A DNA stretch of 40,123 nucleotides from positions 1 through 40,123 of the IMG/VR virus record IMGVR_UViG_2537562231_000015; one strand, written 5' to 3'. How positions within the stretch are numbered: position 1 is the stretch's first letter; the number at the start of each line of letters is the position of its first letter. The translations under genes were made by a program, and so were the position numbers. The DNA comes from a virus (taxonomy: Duplodnaviria; Heunggongvirae; Uroviricota; Caudoviricetes). The notes beneath the pieces were generated by a model. The model was not told the DNA's origin. It ran no database searches and was given only the letters and a program-made list of their open reading frames with translations. Below, one piece after another: positions 3,037-34,655 of the stretch.

Positions 3037-3611
3037 ACCGGGCCTCCGGTTGTATCGCCGCCTTTCAGGACGCCAGTATGCTGATGCGCATCAACCACGA
3101 TCCCGTTAGAACTCATCGCTCCGCCGCCCTGGGTAACGCCACCATTGATCACCACTTCGCTGTTAATGCGCGTGCGGTCAGCCTCCAGTACAAACTCACT
3201 GGTTTTCATGGTGATGTTGTCAGCGGCCTCAATGACCATTGATTTGATGCCCCTGACATACCAGCGCCCGGTGGCGGGTTCGTATTCAAACCAGCCACCG
3301 TCAGGATGTTCTGTCACGCAGGCGTCCGCCGACGTCGACGGTGGCGCGAACTGATTCGAATAGATGGCGGGTAACGCAAAGGCGGTTTCCAGATTGCCGC
3401 CCAGACTCAGCAGCACCACCTGCTCACCTTCCGATGGTCGCCACCATGTGCGGGCATTCCCGGCACGCAGCGTCAGCCAGCTGATCCAGTTGGTTTCAAG
3501 CTCGCCCGTTTTCACCCGGCAAAGCCAGTTTTCCCTGTCCACTTCGGTGACTACCCCTGTGCGGATCAGGTTGGTGATAAGGCGCATGATTTCGGTTAAT
3601 TGTGCGTTCAT
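3033..3611 (-). CDS. V: Baseplate spike/assembly protein V
   Basis: 192-aa ORF in V position of the P2 gene order. Confidence 0.8.
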   Translation of the reverse strand: MNAQLTEIMRLITNLIRTGVVTEVDRENWLCRVKTGELETNWISWLTLRAGNARTWWRPSEGEQVVLLSLGGNLETAFALPAIYSNQFAPPSTSADACVTEHPDGGWFEYEPATGRWYVRGIKSMVIEAADNITMKTSEFVLEADRTRINSEVVINGGVTQGGGAMSSNGIVVDAHQHTGVLKGGDTTGGPV

Positions 3612-3679
3612 AGGGAAAGGTTGCCATCAGGGGAAGAAAGGCGGCAGTGCTGCAACTTGTATCAGTGCTGATACAAAGA

Positions 3680-4126
3680 TCACCCCGCCAGCCATTGCAG
3701 AATCATGTCGCGGGTCATTGCCTCAACATCATCATTTACACCCAGCAGGCGGCGCTCTGCGTAACGGACCTCCGGTCCTTTGCGACTGACGCGATCACGC
3801 AGGCCGTAATGGTGAACACGGGCAATACGCTGCACCTTGCCTTCAAACTGTACGCTGGCAGAGTCGGCGCTGGCGGCAGTTTTCAGGTATTTTGTGGTGC
3901 GCAGCTTTGCAAACATCTGACGTTTGATGCGCCCCTTCTTGCTGCGTGCTGTTACCCTGCGCGGTTCATAACTGCTGCCATCTGGATTGCGCTGCATCCT
4001 GATATTCTGCTGCTGTGTCCGGCGCAGTTCCTGCGCCAGCTGGCGCATCATGCGGCTTCTCGTGGCTGGTTCCAGATTCGCCAGCAAGGCACTCAGCCAG
4101 TCGTCCACTTTCTGCAGTTCAGCCAC
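3680..4126 (-). CDS. S: Tail completion protein S
   Basis: 148-aa ORF, synteny R-S-V. Confidence 0.75.
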   Translation of the reverse strand: MAELQKVDDWLSALLANLEPATRSRMMRQLAQELRRTQQQNIRMQRNPDGSSYEPRRVTARSKKGRIKRQMFAKLRTTKYLKTAASADSASVQFEGKVQRIARVHHYGLRDRVSRKGPEVRYAERRLLGVNDDVEAMTRDMILQWLAG

Positions 4127-4571
4127 GTTTCACCGTCCACATTTCTTCAGGTTCATCGGGTTCTGCTACAGCTTCAACGCTCGACACACTGCCGTCAGTG
4201 CTGACCAGCACACGTTCCGTCAGTTGCAGGTTAAGACTGATATCACAGACATCGTTGCGCAAAATATCCACATCAAAGGTGAATAGCTTTTCCCGTAACG
4301 CCGGGTTATTGATGGCATCGGGCTGGTTATCCCGCAGCCACAGCAAAACCGGGGCCATAAGCAGATTCTGGTCGCCGCTGAAATCCTCTATCACCACGTT
4401 CAGGGTGTAGCGGTACTCCCATGACATGGAGCTGGCCCCCGTGGCAACCAGCGAACCGTTATCCACAAACAGATGCAGTTTGTCCGGGTTATTGCGGGCA
4501 TAAGGCACCGCTTTATTGAGGGCGTGGCGCAGGGATTGTGGTTTGTTCACTGTTTCGCTCCTGACACGCAA
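4119..4571 (-). CDS. R: Tail completion protein R
   Basis: 150-aa ORF, synteny lysB-R-S, overlaps S start. Confidence 0.75.
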   Translation of the reverse strand: MRVRSETVNKPQSLRHALNKAVPYARNNPDKLHLFVDNGSLVATGASSMSWEYRYTLNVVIEDFSGDQNLLMAPVLLWLRDNQPDAINNPALREKLFTFDVDILRNDVCDISLNLQLTERVLVSTDGSVSSVEAVAEPDEPEEMWTVKRG

Positions 4572-4803
4572 TAATCATGTCCACTTTGTCTGCACAGACC
4601 GCCCAGGCGGCCTCCGTTTCATCCTGCAACGCGTTCAGGTCACCGTTAGTGCGCGGCGCTGCCTGCCCCAGCCGACACGGCGTCACTCGCGGACAACCAC
4701 TGACGGTAAGCTGCACCTCCGGTGAGTGCCGGACGTTCCCGCAGCCGGATAATGTCAGCAGGCAAAGGAGTATCAGCCCAGCGGCGTAAATCCTCGTTCT
4801 CAC
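4513..4803 (-). CDS. lysC: LysC-like o-spanin lipoprotein (Rz1-like), embedded in alternate frame of lysB 3' region
   Basis: 96-aa ORF with lipobox-like LTLSGC near N-terminus; overlaps the lysB ORF out of frame. Confidence 0.5.
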   Translation of the reverse strand: MRTRIYAAGLILLCLLTLSGCGNVRHSPEVQLTVSGCPRVTPCRLGQAAPRTNGDLNALQDETEAAWAVCADKVDMIIACQERNSEQTTIPAPRPQ

Positions 4804-5074
4804 GTTTCAGTTCCTCAATCCGGTGTTGTCGTTGTCTCAGTAGTGCGCTGGTCTGTTCTGCGTCGGCATAGAGTCGCGCCTGCTCCCGGTTGTTGGTTTC
4901 TGTCAGAATGGACAGGCTGATAAGCTGGCTGTTGCTCTTTGCCAGTGCCTGGCTTTTGCTCCGAAGCACATCTGCCTGCATGCTGATGGTCTGGCTGGCA
5001 TCAGCCAGCCGCCACGTCTGCCAGCCCAGCGCCGCCAGTAATAACGCCAGCACAACCAGCAGCAACCGGTTCAT
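4646..5074 (-). CDS. lysB: LysB-like i-spanin (Rz-like)
   Basis: 142-aa ORF with N-terminal hydrophobic segment and coiled-coil-like charged region; follows lysA. Confidence 0.7.
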   Translation of the reverse strand: MNRLLLVVLALLLAALGWQTWRLADASQTISMQADVLRSKSQALAKSNSQLISLSILTETNNREQARLYADAEQTSALLRQRQHRIEELKRENEDLRRWADTPLPADIIRLRERPALTGGAAYRQWLSASDAVSAGAGSAAH

Positions 5075-7578: not shown

Positions 7579-8637
7579 TTACACTCCGGTTTCTGCTGCG
7601 GCGGCGCTGAAGTCACCAATCTGGATGTTTTCCACCAGTGCGGCGCAGCGGTAGTCCTCAACCACATAGGCTTCGTTAACGGATTCAAAATTTTCAATCC
7701 GGTCACGTTTCGGGTTGTCGATAACTGAACGGCGGCGGGTATCTTCCTGCCAGTAGATGGACAGGTTATCCAGACGGGTGATCAGCAGCGCATTCGGCGG
7801 GAAGAACGGCGCACGCACGGCCTGCAGGCCACCCATGCGTTTCTGACTGATGATCATATCGGCTGCCAGTTTTTCACTGTTTTCCTGCTCTTTGTTGACC
7901 AGCGGGAAATACTTGTCAGACAGCAGTTCACGACCGCAAATCACCACCAGATCGTCATCGTCCTGGTAGACCACGTCGATAAGCTCATTGACCGCATCCA
8001 TCACAACAGCGTCCAGGTTGGCATATTCGCCACCTTTCCCGACTTTCACCGCACCCGGTGTGGTTTCGCCGCCCGTGGTGGTGCTGCCCATGACGTGATC
8101 CGGTGCATCCTCACGGATTTTCTGCAGCCAGCCTTTGTTCACATCCTGCAGCAGCGGGTTTTCACTACGGTTGGAGGTTTTCGCACGCTTCACGCCGTTA
8201 AAGCCGATCATGATGCGGTCCAGTGCCTGACGTTTCACGATGGCGTCACGGATACGCACCTGGAAATCCTGAAACTTCGCCCACAGGTCCAGCTTCGCGT
8301 AGGTCAGCACCGTGTCAAAGTTGGTCTGCTCGCATTTGTATTCCACATCGACCATCAGCGTCGGATCGACAGGTTCACGCTCTTTCGCGGTGGTGTCAGT
8401 GGTTCCGGCAATGGTGCTGCCAACACCCAGCCCCAGCAGCTGACCGGACTGCTCAGTCACTGGCGTGACGTTAATCAGCGTCAGGAAAGCGGCGGACTGC
8501 TGGATCTGGTCTTCCAGCGTCTGCTGCACAGACGGCTCTACAGTGAACTTGCTGGACAGTTCTTCAACTGCCACACCGTTCAGACGTGCCAGTTGCTGCA
8601 GGTAAGCGTTAAAAGCAAAGCGGGTATTCTTCTTCAT
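7579..8637 (-). CDS. N: Major capsid protein N
   Basis: 352-aa ORF, size and position of P2 gpN. Confidence 0.85.
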   Translation of the reverse strand: MKKNTRFAFNAYLQQLARLNGVAVEELSSKFTVEPSVQQTLEDQIQQSAAFLTLINVTPVTEQSGQLLGLGVGSTIAGTTDTTAKEREPVDPTLMVDVEYKCEQTNFDTVLTYAKLDLWAKFQDFQVRIRDAIVKRQALDRIMIGFNGVKRAKTSNRSENPLLQDVNKGWLQKIREDAPDHVMGSTTTGGETTPGAVKVGKGGEYANLDAVVMDAVNELIDVVYQDDDDLVVICGRELLSDKYFPLVNKEQENSEKLAADMIISQKRMGGLQAVRAPFFPPNALLITRLDNLSIYWQEDTRRRSVIDNPKRDRIENFESVNEAYVVEDYRCAALVENIQIGDFSAAAAETGV

Positions 8638-8653
8638 CAGGTTTTGTGCTCCA

Positions 8654-9487
8654 TCAGCAATTGGTCAGAGTGTCAGCGGGGGCGTTACCGCCTGTTGCAC
8701 GCTGGCGGTAGTCCTGGCGGCTGTCTTCATGACTCAGCTTATTCACCAGTTCGTTAAAGGCGGTTTGCTGCTCCTGCAGAGCAGTCTCCAGCTCAGACAG
8801 GCGTTCTTCCTGCTCAGACAGGGATTTTTCGGTGCGTGCGCTCAGGTTCTGCTGCTCAGTGGCGACCAGCTCCACGGCCTTATGCACATCAGAGAACCGG
8901 GCGTCATCGGACTGCTCTTTTTTGGTAAACAGCGCCGTGACACGGGCAAACAGGGACGGCTTGTCCTCCTGGATTTCTTCCAGTTCGATCACCGTTTCCT
9001 CTGCAGCGGTAAAAAGATTGGCGGGATTCTGCTTGCGGTTTGTCAGCGGGTTATGGGCTGCACTGGCGCTGAATGTCAGCATTTCAGTGCCCAGACTGGC
9101 AGGGTCATCAGTGGCCGCCAGGCCGACCAGGTAGGCTTTGCCCGTATCAGCAAACTTCGGGCTGACTTCCATAGATGTGAATAATTTCTGGCCTTTTTTC
9201 ACCAGCTCCACCAGGGACTCCGTTGGCTCAACGTCGGCATACAGCGCCATCTTGCCCGCCAGCGGACCTTCCGTGATTTCTTCAGCAAACAGCGCCGTCA
9301 CCTTGCCGTAGCGGTTAAAGGTGCTGTCCGGCAGATAAGACTTAATGTGCTCAAGGTTAATCAGCGCGGTATACACCGCCGGGTTGTAGCTGGCTGCCAT
9401 CTGTTCCAGCCATTCACGCTGGATTTCACGTCCGTCGGTAGTGGCACCTTCCACCCCGATGCGAAAACGCTTTGCTTTCACTGTCAT
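8654..9487 (-). CDS. O: Capsid scaffolding protein O
   Basis: 277-aa ORF, acidic coiled-coil-like C-terminus, divergent from P. Confidence 0.85.
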   Translation of the reverse strand: MTVKAKRFRIGVEGATTDGREIQREWLEQMAASYNPAVYTALINLEHIKSYLPDSTFNRYGKVTALFAEEITEGPLAGKMALYADVEPTESLVELVKKGQKLFTSMEVSPKFADTGKAYLVGLAATDDPASLGTEMLTFSASAAHNPLTNRKQNPANLFTAAEETVIELEEIQEDKPSLFARVTALFTKKEQSDDARFSDVHKAVELVATEQQNLSARTEKSLSEQEERLSELETALQEQQTAFNELVNKLSHEDSRQDYRQRATGGNAPADTLTNC

Positions 9488-9564
9488 GAGCCGTGCTCCG
9501 TTAGAAAAAACTTACTGGAGCCTTATGGTTGCGGTGATGGGGGCAGTGAAACAATGCGCGGTAT

Positions 9565-9582
9565 TTGTACCGACAACCACAC
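9565..9582. promoter_or_regulatory. TGT-N12-ACA dyad in O/P divergent intergenic region (candidate Ogr-type late activator site)
   Basis: TGTaccgacaaccacACA between the O and P starts; motif also expected by chance about ten times in 40 kb. Confidence 0.3.
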
Positions 9583-9629
9583 AAACCGCAGGCGGGGAAA
9601 GCCTTCATTCAAGGCTGTAGGTTTGTGCC

Positions 9630-11396
9630 ATGAACACCACACTGACACCCGCAGATCTCGATCCCCGTCGGCAGGCCATGCTGCTGTACTTTCAGGGATA
9701 CCGCGTAGCCCGCATTGCTGAAATGCTGGGCGAGAAAGTTGCAACCGTTCACAGCTGGAAAAAACGCGACAAGTGGGGTGACTATGGGCCGCTGGATCAG
9801 ATGCAGCTCACCACCGCCGCACGCTACTGCCAGCTCATCATGAAGGAGCACAAAGAAGGGAAAGATTTCAAAGAGATTGACCTGCTGGCGCGCCAGTCTG
9901 AGCGCCACGCGCGGATCGGCAAGTTTAACAATGGCGGCAACGAAGCCGACTTAAACCCTAACGTCGCCAACCGCAACAAAGGCCCGCGTCGTCAGCCGGA
10001 AAAGAACGTTTTCACTGATGAACAGATTGAGAAGCTGGAAGAAATCTTCCATTCCTCCATGTTCAACTACCAGCGCCACTGGTGGGAAGCCGGAAAAACC
10101 AACCGCATCCGCAACCTGCTGAAGTCACGCCAGATCGGCGCGACCTTTTACTTTGCCCGTGAAGCCCTGATTGACGCCCTGCTTACCGGACGTAACCAGA
10201 TTTTCCTTTCTGCCAGTAAGGCACAGGCTCACGTCTTTAAGCAGTACATCATCGACTTCGCCAAAGAAGTCGAGGTGGAGCTGAAAGGCGATCCGATGGT
10301 GCTTCCTAACGGGGCCACGCTTTACTTCCTCGGCACCAATGCCCGCACGGCCCAGAGTTACCACGGCAACCTGTATCTGGATGAATATTTCTGGATACCG
10401 AAATTCCAGGAGCTGCGCAAAGTGGCTTCCGGTATGGCTATTCACAAAAAATGGCGACAAACCTATTTTTCCACGCCATCCAGCCTGACCCACAGTGCTT
10501 ATCCGTTCTGGTCCGGTGCGCTGTTCAACCGTGGGCGCAACAAAGCCGATAAGGTGGACATCGACCTGTCCCACAGCAATCTGGCCCCCGGCCTGCTGTG
10601 CGCAGACGGGCAATACCGCCAGATAGTCACCGTGGAAGATGCGGTGCGCGGCGGCTGTAACCTGTTCGACCTTGACCAGTTGCGCATGGAGTACAGCCCG
10701 GACGAATACCAGAACCTGCTGATGTGCGAGTTTGTGGACGATCTCGCGTCCGTGTTCCCGCTCAGCGAACTGCAGGCGTGCATGGTGGACAGTTGGGAAG
10801 TCTGGACCGACTTTCATGCACTGGCCCTGCGCCCGTTTGGCTGGCGCGAGGTGTGGATCGGTTATGACCCGGCAAAAGGTACGCAGAACGGCGACAGCGC
10901 CGGATGCGTGGTGGTGGCACCGCCAGCCGTGCCGGGCGGTAAGTTCCGCATTCTTGAGCGTCACCAGTGGCGCGGGATGGACTTCCGCGCCCAGGCTGAC
11001 GCCATCAAAAAACTGACTGAACAGTACAACGTGACCTACATCGGCATCGACTCGACAGGTGTCGGCCACGGGGTTTACGAGAACGTGAAAGCGTTTTTTC
11101 CAGCCGTCCGGGAGTTTGTCTACAACCCCAACGTTAAAAACGCCCTGGTACTCAAGGCCTACGACATTATCAGTCACCGCCGTCTGGAGTTTGACGCCGG
11201 GCACACCGACATTGCGCAGTCATTCATGGCAATCCGTCGCGCAACCACCGCCAGTGGCAACCGCCCAACCTATGAAGCCAGCCGCAGCGAAGAAGCCAGC
11301 CACGCCGATCTGGCTTGGGCAACGATGCACGCACTGTTTAACGAACCGCTGCAGGGCGAGTCCGCCAATACCAGCAATATTGTGGAGATTTTTTGA
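9630..11396 (+). CDS. P: Terminase large (ATPase) subunit P
   Basis: 588-aa ORF; N-terminus resembles P2 gpP (RRQAMLLY..QG.RV..IAE); divergent from O. Confidence 0.9.
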   Translation: MNTTLTPADLDPRRQAMLLYFQGYRVARIAEMLGEKVATVHSWKKRDKWGDYGPLDQMQLTTAARYCQLIMKEHKEGKDFKEIDLLARQSERHARIGKFNNGGNEADLNPNVANRNKGPRRQPEKNVFTDEQIEKLEEIFHSSMFNYQRHWWEAGKTNRIRNLLKSRQIGATFYFAREALIDALLTGRNQIFLSASKAQAHVFKQYIIDFAKEVEVELKGDPMVLPNGATLYFLGTNARTAQSYHGNLYLDEYFWIPKFQELRKVASGMAIHKKWRQTYFSTPSSLTHSAYPFWSGALFNRGRNKADKVDIDLSHSNLAPGLLCADGQYRQIVTVEDAVRGGCNLFDLDQLRMEYSPDEYQNLLMCEFVDDLASVFPLSELQACMVDSWEVWTDFHALALRPFGWREVWIGYDPAKGTQNGDSAGCVVVAPPAVPGGKFRILERHQWRGMDFRAQADAIKKLTEQYNVTYIGIDSTGVGHGVYENVKAFFPAVREFVYNPNVKNALVLKAYDIISHRRLEFDAGHTDIAQSFMAIRRATTASGNRPTYEASRSEEASHADLAWATMHALFNEPLQGESANTSNIVEIF

Positions 11397-21384: not shown

Positions 21385-22017
21385 ATGATACAGGTAAAGG
21401 TTGGAGAGAATACAGGGGGAAGAGAGGCTATCCATAGACTAATGGCAGCCTATGATTTCAAGTCCAGACAGCAACTTTGCGATCACTTAGGCGCATCAAA
21501 AAGCACCATGGCAAACAGATACTTAAGAGATAGTTTTCCTGCAGAGTGGGTGATTCAGTGCGCCTTGGAAACAGGAGTTTCTTTACTGTGGCTAACCACC
21601 GGACAGGGGGAGCCAGGTCCAAACATTGAACCTAAAAAAAATATCAATTCCGTGAACTCCAGCAAGGTTGTACCTCTTTCTGAACTAGTATCTCCTGAAA
21701 TTGACAAGGCGACTCTCAACGGTGGTTTATTGGTCGATGCTGGAAAAGCAATCATTGATAGCAGCATACTCCCCTCAGACTCAAGCAACCTACTGCTGGT
21801 GACTACTTCTGGTGATTCTTATTTAATAGATCGCAACCAAACACCACCAGTAAATGGTATGTGGTTAGTCGATATCGACGGGATAAAAAGCATCGTTAAA
21901 TTGACTCGACTCCCGGGAAACAAATTAGTAGTGCATCAGGATGATTCATCGTTTGAGTGCGGTCTGGATGACATTGAGGTAGTAGGCCGCGCACTGAAAA
22001 TCATTAAGAGCCTTTGA
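21385..22017 (+). CDS. cI: CI-like immunity repressor
   Basis: 210-aa ORF with N-terminal HTH-like segment; followed immediately by int as in 186. Confidence 0.7.
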   Translation: MIQVKVGENTGGREAIHRLMAAYDFKSRQQLCDHLGASKSTMANRYLRDSFPAEWVIQCALETGVSLLWLTTGQGEPGPNIEPKKNINSVNSSKVVPLSELVSPEIDKATLNGGLLVDAGKAIIDSSILPSDSSNLLLVTTSGDSYLIDRNQTPPVNGMWLVDIDGIKSIVKLTRLPGNKLVVHQDDSSFECGLDDIEVVGRALKIIKSL

Positions 22018-22018
22018 T

Positions 22019-23050
22019 ATGACCATCAGAAAACAGCCGAACGGAAAATGGTTGTGTGAGTGCTATCCCAATGGACGCAATGGCAAGCGCGTGCGTAAGC
22101 AATTTGCCACGAAAGGCGAAGCCATTGCGTTTGAAAGCTTCACAATGGAAGAAGTGAATAAAAAACCGTGGTTGGGTGAAAAGGATGATCGGCGACGCCT
22201 ATCAGAATTAATTGAGCTTTGGTATTCCCTGTATGGTCAGACACTCGCAGACCCCAAGCGCCTCATGGCGAAACTTAGAATTATCTGTAATGGTCTAGGC
22301 GACCCCATCGCCTCTGAGCTGACAGCCGGAGACTTTACGAAATACCGCGAAGCACGGTTAAAAGGTGAAATACGAAATGAAGATGGCACGCTTATGTCGC
22401 CCGTTAAGCCCCGCACGGTAAACCTTGAACAGCGCAATCTATCATCGGTGTTCGGTACATTAAAAAAACTAGGACACTGGTCAGCACCAAACCCGCTGGC
22501 AGGACTTCCGACCTTCAAAATTGCCGAAGGTGAGCTGGCTTTTCTTTCCACGGACGAAATCAAGCGCCTGTTGGCGGCATGTGCTGAATCTCAAAGCCCT
22601 AGCTTACTAATGATTGCAAAAATATGCCTAGCTACTGGCGCACGGTGGAGTGAAGCAGAAAATCTGCAGGGCCATCAGTTATCCAAATACCGCATCACTT
22701 ATACCAAGACGAAGGGCAAGAAAAACCGTACCGTGCCAATATCTCAGGATCTTTACAACGAACTCCCTAAAAACAGAGGAAGGCTATTCACCCCATGCAG
22801 AAAAGCCTTTGAACGGGCAGTAAAACGAGCTGGTATTGAACTGCCAGAGGGACAATGCACCCACGTTCTACGCCATACATTCGCCAGCCATTTCATGATG
22901 AACGGCGGAAACATACTGGTACTGCGCGATATTTTGGGCCATGCCGATATAAAAATGACGATGATTTACGCCCATTTTTCTCCAGACCATCTGGAAGATG
23001 CAGTAACGAAAAACCCTTTGAACTTTATATACTTGTCGAATAACATGTAA
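22019..23050 (+). CDS. int: Tyrosine integrase (P2/186 type)
   Basis: 343-aa ORF; C-terminal HVLRHTFASHFMMNGG...LGHADIKMTMIYAHF catalytic motifs. Confidence 0.9.
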   Translation: MTIRKQPNGKWLCECYPNGRNGKRVRKQFATKGEAIAFESFTMEEVNKKPWLGEKDDRRRLSELIELWYSLYGQTLADPKRLMAKLRIICNGLGDPIASELTAGDFTKYREARLKGEIRNEDGTLMSPVKPRTVNLEQRNLSSVFGTLKKLGHWSAPNPLAGLPTFKIAEGELAFLSTDEIKRLLAACAESQSPSLLMIAKICLATGARWSEAENLQGHQLSKYRITYTKTKGKKNRTVPISQDLYNELPKNRGRLFTPCRKAFERAVKRAGIELPEGQCTHVLRHTFASHFMMNGGNILVLRDILGHADIKMTMIYAHFSPDHLEDAVTKNPLNFIYLSNNM

Positions 23051-23072
23051 CTTATAATGTAAGTACACAAAA

Positions 23073-24086
23073 GTGATCTTAATCTTAAATATGAAACCTA
23101 ATTTAATTTCACGTAAACAGTACCAACACCTCAAAAATGAGTTAAATAGACTTGAGAGCTTACCATATAGACGAGGAAACAACCCAACCAACCTCAGAAT
23201 ATTAAAACTAAGAGAAGATCTAACAAACTCTCTTGTTGAATCCAGAAAAAGAAATTCAAAAAAAATTAATAGAGGAAATGTTAGCTGTATAATATGCAAG
23301 AAAAATTTCAAAAGTGCTCATGGCCTATATGAGCACTATCGCGCCAAGCATAGCAATATGATTGAACACCCTACCTCATTGTTTAATAAAGAAATAAATG
23401 GCAATACAACACTGCTTGAAAGCATTTCGCATCCTGTCACAAAAGGTATACCAATAGCAGAACACGATAAAAAAATATCATCCATTACGCTAAACAGGGA
23501 AACTAAATATTTCAATGTAGATGCGTATAATCTGGCATGCCTTTCATTAACAAAAAGTGAAGCAATAAAAATCGCTAAAGATGAATTATTATCAAGGCAG
23601 TTTCTTGGACAAAAAAACATTCTAGAACCTACTCTACCGCCAGTCATATTTATAAATCCCTCTGATACAATTAGTATACCAGTTGTCACAAAAGGCAATA
23701 CTCATCTGCAAACAATATTACAGCGTGACTCTGGCGAACAGGTTGACTTTAAAAAAAGGGTTCTAAAAAACTTCTCAAATGTATGCGCAATAACAGGTTA
23801 CAACCTCCCAGTATTGCAGGCATGTCACCTTGAACCATTTTCTCAGACCCAAAACCATAGAACCAACAATGGAATACCTCTTGAACCTACCCTTCATGCC
23901 TTGCTTGACCGAGGTCTACTAGCCATACATCCAGATAATTTAACTATTCATTTTGCTATCGATTGCTATTACAAAAATATATATGAAGGAAAAAACATCA
24001 AACCTCATAAGATTGATTTAGATAAAAATTCACTGCTAATAATTTGGAAGAACTTTCTTTTGAATGTTAAAAACAGCCAACCGTAA
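23073..24086 (+). CDS. Zinc-finger plus HNH-like nuclease domain protein (cargo gene)
   Basis: 337-aa AT-rich ORF; C2H2-like CIICKKNF..HGLYEHYRAKH near N-terminus; C-terminal CAITGYN...QACHLEPF...NGIPL...HALLDRGLLAI resembles HNH (HNH_2-like) fold. Confidence 0.55.
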   Translation: MILILNMKPNLISRKQYQHLKNELNRLESLPYRRGNNPTNLRILKLREDLTNSLVESRKRNSKKINRGNVSCIICKKNFKSAHGLYEHYRAKHSNMIEHPTSLFNKEINGNTTLLESISHPVTKGIPIAEHDKKISSITLNRETKYFNVDAYNLACLSLTKSEAIKIAKDELLSRQFLGQKNILEPTLPPVIFINPSDTISIPVVTKGNTHLQTILQRDSGEQVDFKKRVLKNFSNVCAITGYNLPVLQACHLEPFSQTQNHRTNNGIPLEPTLHALLDRGLLAIHPDNLTIHFAIDCYYKNIYEGKNIKPHKIDLDKNSLLIIWKNFLLNVKNSQP

Positions 24087-24213
24087 GTTAGCCTAAAATT
24101 GGCGACAACTTGGCGGCAGAGCATTAAAAATGCGTAAAACGGATAAACACAGGATAATAGTAACACACTGTTTTTGAACGCAAACTACTGTTTTCATTGT
24201 ATTAAAAATAGTA

Positions 24214-24417: not shown

Positions 24418-25051
24418 CCAATTCATGAAGGAGCGGCCAAATTGGCAAGAACGACACGCCCCCTGACCAACACAGAAGTACTGCGCGCTAAAGCGTTAGA
24501 AAAGGATCTAACGTTGCATGATGGCGATGGTCTTTTTCTACTCGTTAAAACGAACGGTAAGAAGTTATGGCGTTTCCGTTATCAACGTCCGGCAACAAAG
24601 CAACGGACAATGATGGGGCTAGGAGCCTTCCCAGCCCTTTCACTTGCTGACGCCCGACGCTTAAGAGCGGATTACCTTTCCTTGTTAGCCAACGGAATTG
24701 ACCCGCAAATTCAAGCTGAAATTGCAGAGGAACAGCAGCAAATCGCACAGGACAGTATTTTCTCGACGGTCGCCGCTAATTGGTTTCAGCTCAAAAGCAA
24801 AAGTGTTACCCCTGATTATGCAAAAGATATTTGGCGCTCATTGGAAAAAGATGTATTCCCCGCCGTTGGTGAGATGCCCGTTCAGCAGATCAAAGCTAGA
24901 ACATTGGTCGAAGCACTTGAGCCAGTCAAAGCTCGTGGGGCATTAGAGACTGTACGTCGTCTGGTGCAACGCATTAACGAAATAATGATTTATGCGGTTA
25001 ACACTGGCTTGATTGATGCAAACCCAGCATCAGGTGGGTAATGACTCCAAC

Positions 25052-25555
25052 TTATTGATAGTGTTTTATGTTCAGATAATGCCCGATGACTTTGTCATGC
25101 AGCTCCACCGATTTTGAGAACGACAGCGACTTCCGTCCCAGCCGTGCCAGGTGCTGCCTCAGATTCAGGTTATGCCGCTCAATTCGCTGCGTATATCGCT
25201 TGCTGATTACGTGCAGCTTTCCCTTCAGGCGGGATTCATACAGCGGCCAGCCATCCGTCATCCATATCACCACGTCAAAGGGTGACAGCAGGCTCATAAG
25301 ACGCCCCAGCGTCGCCATAGTGCGTTCACCGAATACGTGCGCAACAACCGTCTTCCGGAGCCTGTCATACGCGTAAAACAGCCAGCGCTGGCGCGATTTA
25401 GCACCGACATAGCCCCACTGTTCGTCCATTTCCGCGCAGACGATGACGTCACTGCCCGGCTGTATGCGCGAGGTTACCGACTGCGGCCTGAGTTTTTTAA
25501 ATGGCGGAAAATCGTGTTGAGGCCAACGCCCATAATGCGGGCGGTTGCCCGGCAT
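25052..25555 (-). CDS. insB: IS1 InsB
   Basis: 167-aa ORF matching IS1 InsB. Confidence 0.9.
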
Positions 25556-25749
25556 CCAACGCCATTCATGGCCATATCAATGATTTTCTGGTGCGTACCG
25601 GGTTGAGAAGCGGTGTAAGTGAACTGCAGTTGCCATGTTTTACGGCAGTGAGAGCAGAGATAGCGCTGATGTCCGGCGGTGCTTTTGCCGTTACGCACCA
25701 CCCCGTCAGTAGCTGAACAGGAGGGACAGCTGATAGAAACAGAAGCCAC
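25474..25749 (-). CDS. insA: IS1 InsA
   Basis: 91-aa [26 protein letters not shown]... matching IS1 InsA. Confidence 0.9.
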
Positions 25750-26411
25750 TGGAGCACCTCAAAAACACCATCATACACTAAATCAGTAAGTTGGCAGCAT
25801 CACCCATCAGGTGTTGGCATGGCCTTCGAAAAGCCAAAAAAACAAAACATGCCGACGCTTCGACCTGAAGAATTACCAAAGCTGATGCGTTCTTTAGTCA
25901 TGTCAAATCTGTCTATCCCGACTCGCTGTCTAATTGAATGGCAACTCCTGACTCTTGTGCGCCCTTCTGAAGCCTCCAGTACTCGGTGGGAAGAAATCGA
26001 TCTTCATGCAAAGCTCTGGACGATTCCTGCCGAACGGATGAAGGCTAAACGGGAACACATAATTCCTCTATCATCTCAGGCATTAGAGATTCTTAATGTG
26101 ATGAAGCCTATTAGTGCTCATCGTGAATATGTTTTTCCGAGTCGGAATGACCCAAAGAAACCAATGAACAGTCAGACTGCAAATGCAGCTTTAAAACGTA
26201 TTGGTTTTGGCGGAAAATTAGTTGCCCATGGATTACGTTCAATAGCAAGTACAGCCATGAATGAAGCTGGATTAAATCCTGATGTTATCGAGTCTGCCTT
26301 AGCCCACAGTGATAAAAATGAAGTTAGAAAAGCATACAATCGTTCTACTTATCTCGTGCAGCGAATTGAATTGATGGATTGGTGGGGAGAATACGTTAAA
26401 AATAAAAGGGG

Positions 26412-28121
26412 TTAGCCCCCCTTTTTTCTATACAATCTCAAGCACTCGTCCAATTCAATAAGTTGTGAATTACTTAATCGTTCTTTTATATAATAAAATA
26501 CATCTTTTACTGAAGCAATTTCTCTCATCGCTCTATTGCCCATTAAAACATAGTCTTGATACATTCCAATTCTGAAGAATGAATTTGCTGCGCAAGCCAA
26601 CATAATTACTTCGGTCATTGCAGGGAGATTTAAACGATTTGGCTTAAATTTATTTTTATCATATTCGTTAAAACAAGACAAAAAGTTTCTCAATGTTTTT
26701 ATATCAGCAATACCATTTGAAACATTAGTAAATGATTTATATAAATATGGAGAGCATGAATACCAATATATATCACAAACAAGTATAGAACTTCGCTTGT
26801 TCGCAAACTCAAGCCATTCACCCTTATTTCCATTATGCATTAAGTTATATAAGAAATAAAAATGCAACAACCCATTTTTATATTCTTTTTTGGATTGATC
26901 ATAGATTATCTCAATTTTGTCCATGATAGACTGCAAATCAGTGACTTCGCCTAAATTTAACATATTTAGGTATTCACTAAACCACTTCGCTATACTTTTA
27001 GCTGTAAATCCGTCTGCATTCCAGAGCCAATATTGTGCAGATATCTCTGCAACCATTACACCCGATGTTTCCATCACCCAATTAACAGACTCTCTTTTTT
27101 GACTGTAGTTTTTACGGCAAAAATTTATTATCACATGGCGAAGAAGTCGAAGCAATCCAGAGTAACTGAAGTGAGGTTCGCCAAAAAGAACCAGACAATC
27201 ACCAACAGGATTGTAGGCTTTCGAGATCATTGCATCAAGTGGCTTAAGCTCATGGACAAAAGAAGACCTGATTTTGTATAAATTATCTAAAGCTCTACTA
27301 AGGAAGCTATAGCGGATTGGATATCTCTCTGTTTCATTGAAATAATTTTCTTCAAGATTTTTCAGTATAAAATCTTTGAACCTTTTTTGTAATCTGAATT
27401 GTTTGCCTTCAATAAGTATTGATTTAATTTTACAAACATCCTCACCAGGCATATGCTCAAATACAGACTCTAATTCACCTCTGGTTTTTTGATCGTAGTC
27501 ATCCCAATCAGACTTATAGTTATCATTTCTTTGAGACAAAGACTCCAAGGCATAGACTAACATGGAATAAGTCAGGTCAAAGTTGGTTGACAATGATTCT
27601 TTTGAATCACTAATTATTTTTAACGCTGCCATTAAAGATTTAAAGGCAGATCTATTTAGATTCACTACATCTTTAATAAAAGCAGAAAACCCAGAGACAT
27701 CATCAAATGAAACTCTTCGATTAATCTCCACTAAATATGGGGCAACTTCAAGCGCAATTTTTGAGTGATGTTTATTAAAATTTGATAATGCACATATTTT
27801 TTTAACCGATTCTTTTTCTACTCTAGCCACACAATCAAAATAGAATTCCCATAATAAAATAAATTGTTGCCTATAATCCTCATCACCAGCCCTAACTACG
27901 ACTCCAGCTTCAATTCGTTCTGGTTTTTCGGTCAGGAGAGTATAGTTTACCACATAACAGTTTATACCATCATGACTTATTTTATTTGCTTTAAAAAGAG
28001 GGGAGGTGTTTTCCACCGAGAAAGACACATCAACATTTGAATAAAAAACAAATGTGCCATCGTGTTTTTCTATTTTATCTAAATCAAAGAACACTCCAGC
28101 TGATATCTGAAACATACTCAT
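26412..28121 (-). CDS. Hypothetical 569-aa protein in the P4 int-cos variable slot (candidate anti-phage defence)
   Basis: Long AT-rich ORF with no recognised family; contains an R-x4-H motif (RSSFVH); sits where P4 carries gop/beta/cII. Confidence 0.6.
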   Translation of the reverse strand: MSMFQISAGVFFDLDKIEKHDGTFVFYSNVDVSFSVENTSPLFKANKISHDGINCYVVNYTLLTEKPERIEAGVVVRAGDEDYRQQFILLWEFYFDCVARVEKESVKKICALSNFNKHHSKIALEVAPYLVEINRRVSFDDVSGFSAFIKDVVNLNRSAFKSLMAALKIISDSKESLSTNFDLTYSMLVYALESLSQRNDNYKSDWDDYDQKTRGELESVFEHMPGEDVCKIKSILIEGKQFRLQKRFKDFILKNLEENYFNETERYPIRYSFLSRALDNLYKIRSSFVHELKPLDAMISKAYNPVGDCLVLFGEPHFSYSGLLRLLRHVIINFCRKNYSQKRESVNWVMETSGVMVAEISAQYWLWNADGFTAKSIAKWFSEYLNMLNLGEVTDLQSIMDKIEIIYDQSKKEYKNGLLHFYFLYNLMHNGNKGEWLEFANKRSSILVCDIYWYSCSPYLYKSFTNVSNGIADIKTLRNFLSCFNEYDKNKFKPNRLNLPAMTEVIMLACAANSFFRIGMYQDYVLMGNRAMREIASVKDVFYYIKERLSNSQLIELDECLRLYRKKGG

Positions 28122-28412
28122 TCCTTAAACTCAATTGGATCAATCTATCTATATTAACGGATATATTAACAGAACAAAATAATCCTATGCAGTAGCCTAG
28201 CTACTCAAACAATTTCATTACGTTTGTAAGCAATACTCTCCCCACTACACCGTCGAAAGGCGGCTATTTACCACTCCCCTCAGAAGCCATCAGCGGCACA
28301 CTTACCAACATTACCGCGCGACGTCAGGCACCTCCCCTATCCCCCCCAGCCCCTTCCCGACGGTGCTCGGGCGCAAAAAACATTAGTAACGAGCACCAAC
28401 CGGGGGCGCGCA

Positions 28413-28431
28413 GTGCTTTCCCCGCCTCGCC
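28413..28431 (-). other. cos site of the P4-like satellite (identical to P2 19-nt cohesive end)
   Basis: Minus strand reads GGCGAGGCGGGGAAAGCAC exactly, within AAAGCGGGCGGGCGAGGCGGGGAAAGCACTGCGCGC. Confidence 0.8.
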
Positions 28432-28595: not shown

Positions 28596-29168
28596 TTACA
28601 CAGACTGACGTGATGCCAGTTGCGCACTTTTACGCGAAAAAATCATGTTCTGCGCAGGGGTGAATTTTTCACGGCTGTCATCCACCGAAGCCGCGTCAGG
28701 CCTGAATCCGATGGTCGTTAAAATGTCGCTATCCTGTGCGGAATAATTAATTTTTTCACCCTTCGCAAGCCAGGACAGGAGGGCTTCACGCAGGGCATCT
28801 GTGGCACGCTGTATGGCACAGTTTCGGGCAATGGCCGTCAGATCACTGTAGCCCATCAGCTCCGGTGCCAGTGCCGCCGCCAGTGCTGTGCCGTGCTGCT
28901 GCATAAAATCATTCAGCCGGTCGCGGATGCTGATGTGCTGAACGGCTTCATGCGAACGAATATAACGACCGGCGGCCTGATTCACCTGCCATTTTCTGAC
29001 TTCGATAATATTGCGTAATTCGTCCAGGCGACTGACGTTTCTGCCTTCTCCTGACAGAAGCCGCAGATATTCCTGTTCGGCCGCAGCCAGCTCATTTTTG
29101 CGTTGCAGCCATGCTGCTTTGTTATTCTGACAGGTGTCAAAGGCCTGCTGTAAGGCTGTGCTTTCCAT
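28596..29168 (-). CDS. psu: Psu (polarity suppression / capsid decoration) protein
   Basis: 190-aa ORF, same length as P4 Psu, in the sid-delta-psu-cos arrangement. Confidence 0.85.
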   Translation of the reverse strand: MESTALQQAFDTCQNNKAAWLQRKNELAAAEQEYLRLLSGEGRNVSRLDELRNIIEVRKWQVNQAAGRYIRSHEAVQHISIRDRLNDFMQQHGTALAAALAPELMGYSDLTAIARNCAIQRATDALREALLSWLAKGEKINYSAQDSDILTTIGFRPDAASVDDSREKFTPAQNMIFSRKSAQLASRQSV

Positions 29169-31325: not shown

Positions 31326-31355
31326 GCTTGCCTTTTTCCGGCATTTGCGGATATA
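31326..31355 (+). promoter_or_regulatory. Candidate sigma70 promoter (PLE-like)
   Basis: TTGCCT, 18-bp spacer, TATAGT; upstream of the RNA-immunity region. Confidence 0.35.
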
Positions 31356-31510
31356 GTTTTTCCGCTGCCGCAAAATCGGCAGCCGGGCGTAGGAACCCGA
31401 GTTACTTCAAGGCGACATATGACGCGCCATGCGTCTTTTTTTACGTCGTTGCTTCGGCACACCTGTTTTTCTGGCTGTGGTTTTTAAACCGTAGCCTCTG
31501 TCAGATAATG

Positions 31511-31590
31511 GTGGTCCGGGCGGGGCAGCCTTCGGGCTGGCCGGTTTCCTTGAAGGCCGGTATTCCTACCCCCGTCCGGGCTACCACCCA
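31511..31590 (+). ncRNA. cI: Candidate P4-type CI immunity RNA
   Basis: Structured GC-rich segment containing CCTTGAAGG and TATTCCTAC, complementary to repeated GTAGGAAC...ACTTCAAGG elements at 31385-31412 and 31595-31640. Confidence 0.45.
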
Positions 31591-31645
31591 TGAGCGTAGG
31601 AACTCCAGTGGTAGCTGTAACTGTTACTTCAAGGAGGCTGCCATC

Positions 31646-31843: not shown

Positions 31844-32100
31844 TAAAAAAGCCCCTCAGACCGTCTCAGCACGTCATGACGCCCGTGAACACCTCAGCAT
31901 TGAGGCTTACCATAAGCTCAACCGCGCCAGCGCCGTATCCCAGTTTGTTGGGGGTGATTTGATTCACCGTGAACTCTCCGGCCTGCATCAGCTCTACATT
32001 CCGCATATTTTCAGCGTAAGCGTAAACTGACCGCCGTATGTAGCCATCAGACGAGAATTGGTAACTTAGACGCCCATCTGATATAGACGGACATCTAAGT

Positions 32101-32526
32101 ATGGAATTACAGGACTGGCGAAAAGAACCTCGTAAAAACTATTCGAATGAATTCAAACTTCGTATGGTGGAACTGGCATCACAACCTGGAGCTTGTGTTG
32201 CACAGATTGCACGTGAAAATGGCGTCAATGATAATGTTATTTTCAAATGGCTCAGGCTCTGGCAGAACGAAGGGCGTGTTTCGCGGCGTCTTCCGGTAAC
32301 GACCTCTTCTGACACTGGCGTTGAATTATTACCTGTAGAAATAACGCCGGATGAGCAGAAAGAACCTGTGGCGGCCATTGCGCCGTCTTTATCCACTTCC
32401 ACTCAGACCAGAGTCAGTGCCAGTTCCTGCAAGGTGGAATTCCGTCACGGTAACATGACGCTGGAAAATCCATCGCCAGAGCTGCTCACAGTGTTGATCC
32501 GTGAACTGACCGGGAGGGGAAGATGA
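32101..32526 (+). CDS. IS66-family accessory protein (orf1/TnpA)
   Basis: 141-aa ORF, first gene of the IS66 three-gene array. Confidence 0.8.
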   Translation: MELQDWRKEPRKNYSNEFKLRMVELASQPGACVAQIARENGVNDNVIFKWLRLWQNEGRVSRRLPVTTSSDTGVELLPVEITPDEQKEPVAAIAPSLSTSTQTRVSASSCKVEFRHGNMTLENPSPELLTVLIRELTGRGR

Positions 32527-32873
32527 TCTCACTCCCATCAGGTACCCGTATCTGGCTCGTTGCCGGCGTTACCGATATGCGTAAATCCTTCAACGGACTG
32601 GGAGAACAGGTACAACATGTGCTGAATGATAATCCCTTCTCCGGTCACCTGTTTATCTTCCGTGGCCGACGGGGTGACACCGTCAAAATTCTTTGGGCTG
32701 ATGCTGATGGTCTGTGCCTGTTCACCAAACGCCTGGAGGAAGGCCAGTTTATCTGGCCTGCGGTACGTGACGGCAAGGTATCCATTACCCGCTCGCAACT
32801 GGCAATGCTCCTCGATAAGCTGGACTGGCGTCAGCCAAAAACATCCAGCCGTAACTCACTGACAATGTTGTAA
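32523..32873 (+). CDS. IS66-family Orf2 (TnpB)
   Basis: 116-aa ORF overlapping orf1 stop; conserved IS66 orf2 size. Confidence 0.85.
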   Translation: MISLPSGTRIWLVAGVTDMRKSFNGLGEQVQHVLNDNPFSGHLFIFRGRRGDTVKILWADADGLCLFTKRLEEGQFIWPAVRDGKVSITRSQLAMLLDKLDWRQPKTSSRNSLTML

Positions 32874-32903
32874 AAAACTCCTGACCGCATTATAAAAACG
32901 GTC

Positions 32904-34517
32904 ATGAGTCAGAAATACCTCATTCGCATCGCAGAGCTGGAAAGGTTGCTCTCTGAGCAGGCTGAAGCCCTCCGTCAGAAAGACCAGCAACTGAGTCTGG
33001 TTGAAGAGACGGAAGCCTTCCTGCGCTCTGCACTGACACGTGCCGAAGAAAAGATCGAAGAAGATGAACGGGAAATAGAACATCTGCGGGCTCAGATAGA
33101 AAAACTGCGCCGGATGCTGTTCGGTACCCGTTCTGAAAAACTGCGTCGTGAAGTTGAACTGGCTGAGGCTCTGCTGAAACAACGTGAACAGGACAGCGAT
33201 CGTTACAGTGGGCGGGAAGACGATCCTCAGGTTCCCCGCCAGTTGCGACAGTCGCGCCATCGTCGTCCGTTACCGGCACACCTTCCCCGTGAAATACACC
33301 GCCTGGAGCCAGAAGAAAGCTGTTGCCCGGAGTGTGGCGGTGAGCTGGATTATCTGGGGGAAGTCAGCGCTGAACAGCTGGAACTGGTGAGCAGTGCCCT
33401 GAAAGTGATCCGCACAGAACGGGTAAAAAAAGCCTGTACAAAATGTGACTGTATTGTTGAAGCACCGGCGCCGTCCCGCCCGATAGAGCGTGGTATCGCG
33501 GGCCCCGGATTACTTGCCCGCGTGTTAACGGGAAAATACTGCGAACATCTGCCACTGTATCGTCAGAGTGAAATCTTTGCCCGCCAGGGTGTCGAACTGA
33601 GCCGGGCCTTACTCTCCAACTGGGTTGACGCGTGCTGCCAGTTAATGACACCGGTGAATGATGCCCTGTACCGTTATGTAATGAACACCCGCAAGGTTCA
33701 CACTGATGACACACCGGTAAAGGTACTGGCACCGGGTCAGAAAAAGGCGAAAACAGGGCGTATCTGGACGTATGTCCGGGATGATCGCAATGTGGGTTCG
33801 TCATCTCCTCCAGCGGTCTGGTTCGCGTACTCGCCGAACCGGCAGGGGAAACACCCGGAGCAACACCTCCGCCCCTTCCGGGGTATCCTGCAGGCGGATG
33901 CGTTCACAGGTTACGACAGGTTGTTCAGTGCAGAACGTGAAGGTGGTGCACTGACAGAAGTTGCGTGCTGGGCCCATGCCCGGCGAAAAATCCACGATGT
34001 ATACATCAGCAGCAAAAGTGCGACGGCAGAAGAAGCCCTGAAGCGAATCAGTGAACTGTACGCCATCGAGGATGAAATACGGGGATTACCGGAGTCAGAG
34101 CGTCTTGCCGTCAGGCAGCAGCGAAGCAAAGTGTTACTGACGTCGCTGCATGAATGGATGGTGGAGAAGAATGGTACGCTGTCGAAAAAATCCAGACTGG
34201 GCGAAGCGTTCAGCTATGTACTGAATCAGTGGGATGCCCTCTGTTATTACAGTGATGACGGTCTGGCGGAGGCGGATAATAATGCTGCGGAAAGAGCGCT
34301 TCGTGCAGTCTGTCTCGGAAAGAAAAACTTTATGTTCTTTGGCAGCGATCACGGCGGCGAGCGTGGAGCACTGTTGTACGGGCTGATCGGCACCTGCCGT
34401 CTGAACGGTATCGATCCGGAAGCGTATCTGCGCCATATCCTGAGCGTACTGCCGGAATGGCCTTCCAACCGAGTTGACGAACTCCTGCCATGGAACGTAG
34501 TACTCACCAATAAATAA
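32904..34517 (+). CDS. IS66-family transposase (TnpC)
   Basis: 537-aa ORF with N-terminal coiled coil, zinc-finger-like CPECGG and C-terminal DDE region. Confidence 0.9.
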   Translation: MSQKYLIRIAELERLLSEQAEALRQKDQQLSLVEETEAFLRSALTRAEEKIEEDEREIEHLRAQIEKLRRMLFGTRSEKLRREVELAEALLKQREQDSDRYSGREDDPQVPRQLRQSRHRRPLPAHLPREIHRLEPEESCCPECGGELDYLGEVSAEQLELVSSALKVIRTERVKKACTKCDCIVEAPAPSRPIERGIAGPGLLARVLTGKYCEHLPLYRQSEIFARQGVELSRALLSNWVDACCQLMTPVNDALYRYVMNTRKVHTDDTPVKVLAPGQKKAKTGRIWTYVRDDRNVGSSSPPAVWFAYSPNRQGKHPEQHLRPFRGILQADAFTGYDRLFSAEREGGALTEVACWAHARRKIHDVYISSKSATAEEALKRISELYAIEDEIRGLPESERLAVRQQRSKVLLTSLHEWMVEKNGTLSKKSRLGEAFSYVLNQWDALCYYSDDGLAEADNNAAERALRAVCLGKKNFMFFGSDHGGERGALLYGLIGTCRLNGIDPEAYLRHILSVLPEWPSNRVDELLPWNVVLTNK

Positions 34518-34655
34518 GCGTCAATACGGTGCTCCGTTGACGCTTACTTTTCAGCTACCTGAATGAAGATATTGATTTTGTGCTGAATGAGCTGAAAGCC
34601 AAAGGCCTGTGCCGCGATTTTCTCGCCCAGCAGAAAGACCGGGGAGACAGGACGC

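Follow-up and report, generated by a model that had tools for sequence, protein, structure and literature searches.

A predicted HEPN-domain protein with a TPR-like C-terminal domain in the cargo slot of a P4-like satellite

The HEPN-TPR locus

The window analysed here, the whole 40,123-nucleotide stretch of IMG/VR record IMGVR_UViG_2537562231_000015 (Caudoviricetes), carries a P4-like satellite in which one AT-rich gene, referred to below as HEPN-TPR, lies between psu and cos on one side and the P4-type integrase gene (int) on the other. The open reading frame (ORF) encodes 569 amino acids counted from the first ATG and is a genuine gene, not a chance ORF, as the sequence-only reading of this DNA had taken it to be. 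It appears in the ORF listing, the chance of 569 stop-free codons at a guanine plus cytosine (GC) content of 0.33 is about 1e-21, and its GC content of 33% (0.30-0.36 along the gene; 28% at third codon positions) compares with 0.50-0.57 in the flanking P4 backbone. The AT-rich composition is counted as a sign of horizontal acquisition. The features of the gene and its slot are as follows.

26412..28121, minus strand: HEPN-TPR ORF, stop codon at 26412-26414 (ORF listing, homologues and RefSeq)
27717..28121, minus strand: N-terminal domain, about residues 1-135, with a beta-sheet at 17-65 plus helices in the model
27087..27716, minus strand: predicted central HEPN domain, about residues 136-345
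27537..27545, minus strand: conserved E193-S-L in the helix LVYALESLSQ, predicted HEPN helix 1
27252..27269, minus strand: predicted catalytic Rx4H motif RSSFVH, R285-H290, within the signature Y282-x2-R-S-x3-H
26415..27086, minus strand: C-terminal TPR-like helical-repeat domain, about residues 346-569, presumed sensor
26404..26425, minus strand: terminator-like hairpin at the convergent 3' ends of the HEPN-TPR gene and int (consensus scan, pattern match only)
28122..28260, minus strand: AT-rich upstream leader/promoter region (sequence read and promoter scan)
28413..28431, minus strand: cos 19-mer GGCGAGGCGGGGAAAGCAC, one hotspot boundary (exact single match, 0 expected by chance)
28596..29168, minus strand: psu, polarity suppression protein, hotspot flank (Pfam Psu, E = 1.6e-88; RefSeq annotation of the homologous locus)
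24442..26415, plus strand: P4-type integrase, the other hotspot boundary, split by the insertion sequence (IS) IS1 into 24442-25041 and 25819-26415

Translation probably begins at 28115, giving a product of 567 amino acids, because all 70 homologues begin with MFQIS or MLQIS, an AGGA sits 5' of the second ATG, and RefSeq annotates the E. coli ATCC 8739 copy (WP_000486482.1) at 567 amino acids. At the other end, the ORF coordinates place the stop regions of HEPN-TPR and int in a 4-nucleotide overlap. A 9-nucleotide direct repeat, GTTAATATA, occurs twice, 12 nucleotides apart, at 28150-28170 on the minus strand, 30-55 nucleotides before the start codon, and could be an operator or promoter element.

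The backbone of the satellite was recognized by Pfam matches to Psu, Ogr/Delta, the alpha primase-helicase, AlpA and integrase domains. The 19-mer GGCGAGGCGGGGAAAGCAC at 28413-28431 we take to be the P4/P2 cos sequence, and together these matches bear out the P4 assignment made on first reading. HEPN-TPR therefore lies where hotspot cargo lies, with psu/cos of the P4-like element on one side and int on the other, and the ORF listing holds no further ORF of substance between cos and int. The earlier description of HEPN-TPR as the only intact gene between int and cos stands as far as other ORFs are concerned and needs the qualification that int itself is IS1-split in the window. The status of this slot in P4-like satellites as an anti-phage hotspot, noted on first reading, is documented (PMC9122126), and the P4 fragments cloned by Rousset et al. 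2022 include the same cos 19-mer (PMC9122126).

Family conservation and domain architecture

Clustered at 50% identity, the family recovered by an exhaustive profile search has 1,204 representatives, of which 477 score E <= 1e-30; nearly all are full-length at 560-620 amino acids. The family is large, uncharacterised and distinct in its architecture, although it belongs to a known kind, HEPN effector cargo of the P4 hotspot.

Conservation centres on a putative active site. RSSFVH (residues 285-290) is the sole Rx4-6H in the protein and falls at the end of model helix 271-290. At least one Rx4-6H is present in 78% of shuffled sequences, so the pattern alone is meaningless and the weight is carried by its conservation. 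The sequence-only reading, which had pointed to RSSFVH as a possible mark of a HEPN-type ribonuclease (RNase), had cautioned that the motif was weak on its own; the caution was justified, and the HEPN call is now supported by both fold and motif conservation. R285, S286, H290, E193-S-L, Y185, R157, W206, R247 and Y282 are invariant in an alignment of 33 homologues reaching down to 18% identity. In a deeper set, made up of the query and 124 full-length representatives that are 18-37% identical to it (n = 125), Y282, S286 and W206 are kept in 125/125 sequences and R285, H290 and E193 in 124/125 each, with R157 likewise conserved. From its conservation, E193 is a probable active-site or structural acidic residue; by eye its helix looks like 'WIAIESLIP' of Ec2ApeA and 'WIALECIF' of Ec1ApeA, a likeness without statistical support. 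The pattern as a whole fits a predicted catalytic, and not merely structural, HEPN domain, and sequence comparison indicates that the gene is under purifying selection.

An AlphaFold2 model built with the family alignment (pLDDT, the predicted local distance difference test, 85.2) has three regions: an N-terminal beta-sheet with helices (residues 1 to about 135), a helical centre, and C-terminal helical hairpins (about 374-567). The N-terminal extreme is strongly conserved (Q5, G9, F11, S28 and N29), and neither a family nor a fold match was obtained for the domain at about 1-135. The central region has the all-alpha core fold of HEPN domains, a four-helix up-down bundle. Its fold matches include the HEPN protein 4NQF (listed figure 8.6), AbiV (7.9), the AMPylated HEPN toxin 8XDJ (7.7), HepT 5YEP (7.3), the 7AE2 HEPN toxin, Csm6, AbiA and AF0298 (7.1 each) and sacsin HEPN (6.9). 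The C-terminal domain is the least conserved (mean column conservation 0.34 versus 0.46), as expected of a sensor, and in this respect fits that role; in the model it appears to resemble the peptide/ligand receptors ComR, Rap and PlcR.

Two checks suggested with the sequence-only reading, a profile hidden Markov model search and a structural comparison, gave the following results. Searches of Pfam, NCBIfam and PHROGs with the full protein gave no usable match, and PADLOC gave one weak match, to the 187-position HEPN-domain model 'Cas13-ApeA' at E = 7e-6 over residues 150-275; the same model matches 13/33 family members. A Foldseek search of the full-length model against the PDB returned nothing significant (best E = 0.85), whereas comparison of the HEPN domain returned the matches given above, among them 4NQF, AbiV, HepT and Csm6. 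In PDB sequence searches the protein gave 0 matches, the family profile 0 and the domain profile one chance SecA match at E = 4.7. We consider it highly probable that the product is a catalytic HEPN protein whose C-terminal domain is TPR-like.

Distribution and genomic contexts

The HEPN-TPR gene was found in 20/5,426 complete E. coli genomes, always on the chromosome and beside a P4-type integrase, and in 18 E. coli genomes it is 99.6-100% identical over its full length. Homologues elsewhere occupy varied mobile and defence-associated settings. The Pectobacterium homologue lies in the same P4 slot, at ssrA. Others adjoin Gabija-like genes, IS elements and a trypsin-STAND gene (Vibrio navarrensis), SIR2 and HerA in an integrase island (Aeromonas), HEPN_AbiV and a ResIII helicase (Cellulomonas), DUF4145 and a kinase/PP2C pair (Ferrimonas), or a resolvase and a UmuD-like gene (Klebsiella), and the Vreelandella homologue is in a Toprim/DUF927 element with DUF3800. 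Plasmid homologues were found in Bacillus, Paenibacillus, Acinetobacter, Ralstonia, Bradyrhizobium, Nocardia and a cyanobacterium. A Lacrimispora sp. homologue, 26% identical, is located between the large terminase (TerL) and portal genes of a prophage; the Lacrimispora insertion, at 8001-10355 of its locus, also holds an unrelated ORF of 215 amino acids, and its place inside the packaging module is unusual for a moron.

A conserved partner gene downstream, considered for Aeromonas and Lacrimispora, was ruled out, the two genes being unrelated. Neighbours differ in every sampled context of the homologues, and, as the unrelated downstream genes also indicate, HEPN-TPR behaves as a one-gene module found on mobile elements and in defence islands.

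Comparison with known HEPN systems

ApeA (Gao_Ape; PDB 9HXN/9HXI) is, like HEPN-TPR, a single-gene HEPN protein of about 570-600 amino acids carried in phage and satellite hotspots. It acts by abortive infection through cleavage of transfer RNA (tRNA) anticodons, forms a doughnut-shaped decamer or dodecamer, and is activated by 5'-phosphorylated deoxydinucleotides. For comparison, Ec1ApeA and Ec2ApeA were recovered from E. coli genomes and an ApeA family alignment was built; the full-length PADLOC ApeA model PDLC02157 matched Ec1ApeA at E = 0 and Ec2ApeA at E = 1e-12. ApeA and HEPN-TPR both have insertions between the core HEPN helices, and their motifs look alike (A-L/I-E-S-L in helix 1 and Y-x2-R-[SN]-x3-H in helix 3). 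The order of domains differs: ApeA has an N-terminal domain, a Mid domain and a C-terminal split HEPN domain (335-583; R502 or R521), whereas in HEPN-TPR the HEPN domain is central (about 136-345, R285) and is followed by a TPR-like domain of about 220 amino acids. The dinucleotide pocket of ApeA, formed by its N-terminal and HEPN domains, is not mappable onto HEPN-TPR, and the N-terminal domains are without similarity. In E. coli JNQH497, Ec2ApeA is annotated as a 'hypothetical protein' at 3105-4856 of its locus, flanked by a baseplate gene (gpV) and virion-morphogenesis genes in a P2-like prophage.

DARNA/PD-T7-3, a HEPN tRNase that works by abortive infection once an infection cue has activated it, is functionally the nearer analogy. 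Like HEPN-TPR it is a single protein with an all-helical, repeat-like, non-catalytic domain C-terminal to the HEPN domain. It has 456 amino acids, an N-terminal HEPN domain (R117x4H122) and a Pds5-like C-terminal domain that binds single-stranded DNA, whereas HEPN-TPR has an extra N-terminal module of 135 amino acids. Identity with DARNA/PD-T7-3 was ruled out by this architecture and by the absence of a PADLOC match. Minimal HEPN toxins and Abi HEPN proteins (HepT/SO_3166, AbiV, Csm6 HEPN) have 4-16% sequence identity to HEPN-TPR; they are either stand-alone toxins of about 130-150 amino acids with MNT antitoxins or coupled to CARF or other sensors, whereas HEPN-TPR is without an antitoxin neighbour. 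The LA2681-like HEPN proteins are fused to TPR, the same domain combination (Anantharaman et al. 2013, PMC3710099), and were ruled out as the family of HEPN-TPR, Pfam HEPN_LA2681 matching 0/33 members at E <= 1.

Earlier record and published phage tests

HEPN-TPR is not new: the gene already has a name in the literature, has been cloned and put through phage tests with no phenotype reported, and has been picked out by a machine-learning predictor. The claim of the sequence-only reading that the gene is novel and of no recognized kind therefore falls. Table S1A of Rousset et al. 2022 places NC_010468 / WP_000486482, from E. coli ATCC 8739, among the P4-encoded hotspot loci (PMC9122126), and Table S2B lists pFR83 'HEPN-TPR', one ATCC 8739 gene with its native upstream region on a low-copy plasmid (PMC9122126). 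The protein sequence listed for pFR83 begins MFQISAGVFFDLDKIEKHDG (PMC9122126), and its insert opens with the psu 3' end and cos region also read in the window and contains the leader region 28122..28260 within its native-promoter fragment. Protein in the window differs from the ATCC 8739 allele at one residue, H420Y, with 99.7% nucleotide identity between the genes. Gene and psu/cos-int slot are thus the same in both; the window satellite differs in further having IS1 in int, an IS66-family element and a tandem island at ssrA.

Table S2B covers 'additional tested systems', validated systems being in Table S2A (PMC9122126). The tests used lambda, T4, P1, 186cIts, CLB_P2, LF82_P8, AL505_P2 and T7 on MG1655, and P2 with four P2-like phages on E. 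coli C, where only TIR-NLR protected (PMC9122126). Robust resistance was given by 7/19 cargo systems from P4 hotspots (PMC9122126). DefensePredictor (2026) assigns WP_000486482.1 a mean log-odds of 7.09, against a stringent cutoff of 4, and labels it 'Predicted novel defense gene' (PMC13092281); the accession is absent from the DefensePredictor tables of cloned and tested units (PMC13092281). A literature search for 'HEPN-TPR' and the accession found no later mention or validation. Newly named P4 systems from a 2026 preprint (Crouga, Bandua, Aernus, Toga, Reve and Hailong) were considered as matches, and none fits a single HEPN protein of 567 amino acids.

State of the satellite and neighbouring elements

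The satellite copy in the window is crippled by IS1 and an IS66-family element, and its cargo gene is intact. The N half of int contains Arm-DNA-bind_3 and Phage_int_M and the C half Phage_integrase, with DDE_Tnp_IS1 in between (Pfam); the IS1 element, with its InsA/InsB ORFs, lies at about 25037-25804, where the alignment to ATCC 8739 breaks. With int split in this way, the copy probably cannot excise. The IS66-family element, with three ORFs (HTH_Tnp_1, TnpB_IS66 and DDE_Tnp_IS66), spans about 32014-34541 in the early, immunity-proximal P4 region and is missing from the ATCC 8739 satellite, which is otherwise 98-99% identical. The P4 immunity RNA region is intact, with matches above Rfam gathering scores. 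A second integrative island, at 21385-24212, stands in tandem with the satellite at the ssrA attachment (att) site. A 3' att fragment of ssrA of only about 45 nucleotides abuts the P4 int, and RNA searches found no transfer-messenger RNA gene within the window. The elements concerned are listed below; the HNH_2 protein may be a further cargo or defence candidate.

31351-31403: c4-a1b1 RNA (Rfam)
31364-31441: isrK RNA (Rfam)
31504-31591: C4/CI antisense immunity RNA (Rfam)
21385-22017: CI-type repressor of the second island
22019-23050: tyrosine integrase of the second island
23073-24086: HNH_2 endonuclease-domain protein of the second island, 337 amino acids, about 33-36% GC (PADLOC HNH models, E = 5e-9)

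Proposed function and alternatives

The reading that we favour, with modest confidence, is that HEPN-TPR acts as a single-protein immune or abortive-infection effector, an infection-triggered HEPN RNase carried as P4-hotspot cargo. An anti-phage RNase is suggested by analogy with ApeA, DARNA, PrrC and Csm6, by the genomic contexts and by the independent machine-learning score, and the RNase activity, dimerisation, RNA target, trigger and anti-phage function ascribed to the protein here are all put forward on such analogies. In the uninfected cell the protein would be held inactive. On infection, the TPR-like domain, possibly with the N-terminal module, would bind a ligand specific to infection, be it a phage protein, a peptide or a nucleic acid, and this binding would rearrange or assemble HEPN dimers to form the composite Rx4H active site. 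Cellular RNA, most plausibly tRNA anticodon loops, would then be cleaved, translation would stop and phage replication would be aborted. A more specific proposal, tentative and less probable, is that HEPN-TPR represents the founding E. coli member of an immune-sensor family of >1,200 clusters across several phyla, in which the TPR-like receptor senses a phage protein or peptide and activates the HEPN RNase. The activation logic of such a sensor would differ from that of ApeA (deoxydinucleotides) and DARNA (single-stranded DNA presented by SSB), and the 2022 negative would reflect a phage panel that was too narrow or a native promoter that was silent.

Several observations weigh against an anti-phage effector of this kind. 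The ATCC 8739 allele of HEPN-TPR, under its native promoter, is not among the protecting systems against 13 phages (PMC9122126). Unchanged plaquing had been named with the sequence-only reading as an outcome that would speak against a defence gene, and this is in part what has been seen: pFR83 is not listed with the validated systems, for a small panel and a native promoter without an expression check. The negative is weakened because another system in the same study was silent from its native promoter and active only from Ptet (PMC9122126). At its threshold, the promoter scan showed no match to the sigma-70 consensus on the coding strand ahead of HEPN-TPR. Pfam TPR models gave no match, and the TPR assignment comes from the predicted structure. 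The comparisons gave no significant sequence homology to any validated defence protein: the PADLOC PD-T7-3 model matched none of the 33 members, PDLC02157 matched 0/33 at E <= 0.01, and hhalign of the HEPN-TPR and ApeA families gave a non-significant E = 0.26. One metagenomic homologue has an uninformative neighbourhood. Decay is also evident, the gene being broken by IS1A in E. coli SCPM-O-B-7615 (NZ_CP144926.1 1186401-1188889) and reduced to its last 35% in NZ_AP018395.1.

Among the alternatives, a HEPN nuclease working as a selfish or addiction-type toxin, or as a factor in competition between elements (rival satellites, plasmids or particular helpers), is unlikely but would account for the absent phenotype against lytic coliphages, since its role would be to serve the mobile element. 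An addiction module would sit poorly with the lack of a conserved antitoxin-like gene next to HEPN-TPR, whose neighbours differ in every context, and the gene was cloned alone on a plasmid and is therefore not constitutively toxic. Homologues are found next to established defence systems (Gabija-like genes, SIR2-HerA and AbiV), and in the published test P2-like helpers were affected only by TIR-NLR. That the ORF is instead decaying or non-functional cargo of a degraded satellite, kept by chance or recently acquired, we regard as improbable. The IS1 in int, the IS66 element in the early region, the occurrence in only 20/5,426 E. coli genomes with the one IS1-broken copy and the one 35% fragment, and the unreported phenotype could all be read in this way. 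Against it are the intact ORF in the window, the 99.6-100% identity over full length in 18 genomes, and the 1,204 full-length clusters with a near-invariant active site at 18-37% identity, which argues for strong purifying selection; defence-gene pseudogenes are, moreover, rare at P4/P2 hotspots according to a preprint.

The two remaining alternatives concern the nature of the HEPN domain. Descent as a divergent member of the ApeA (Gao_Ape) family, and so a tRNA-anticodon nuclease of deoxydinucleotide-activated decamers, is suggested by the name of the PADLOC domain model, by one UniRef member named 'Apea-like HEPN', by sub-threshold Pfam HEPN_Apea (PF18739) matches in 6/33 members (best E = 0.011), by the likeness of ALESL to IAIESL and of LYxxRSxxVH to IYRTRNLIVH, by close lengths (567 versus 583-601 amino acids), and by the association of both families with P2/P4 hotspots. 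We nevertheless judge it very improbable. Besides the failure of the full-length ApeA model across all 33 members, hhalign of the two HEPN regions gave E = 0.057 with the alignment out of register, the domain order differs, and the N-terminal domain that contributes the dinucleotide pocket has no counterpart by similarity. ApeA structures were present in the searched PDB and were not among the top structural matches. Pfam HEPN_Apea itself gave no match to the window protein at E <= 1, full-length or with the domain alone, and cannot decide membership because it also misses the validated Ec1ApeA and Ec2ApeA at E <= 1. Membership of ApeA was thus ruled out by profile, hhalign and domain order; from the motifs, the family may belong to the same broad Apea-like HEPN clade, yet is not ApeA. 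It is more improbable still that the HEPN domain, like those of sacsin and the KNTase-associated HEPN proteins, binds a ligand or RNA without catalysis, making the protein a regulator or adaptor and not a nuclease: near-absolute conservation of R285, S286, H290, Y282 and E193 is what characterises HEPN RNases that are catalytic (Anantharaman et al. 2013, PMC3710099), and no partner enzyme gene is conserved nearby.

Implications

HEPN-TPR is a cautionary case, in which a hotspot location, a defence-type domain and a log-odds of 7.09 stand alongside a published absence of phenotype. Resolving the case would help to calibrate the trust placed in guilt-by-location and machine-learning predictions. 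If HEPN-TPR is a true defence gene, its receptor-like TPR domain suggests a tractable search for the trigger through phage escape mutants, and the family would provide a third point of comparison, beside ApeA and DARNA, on how HEPN RNases stay silent and are then triggered. A widespread one-gene (about 1.7 kilobases) HEPN effector family with its own sensor architecture would then join the abortive-infection systems.

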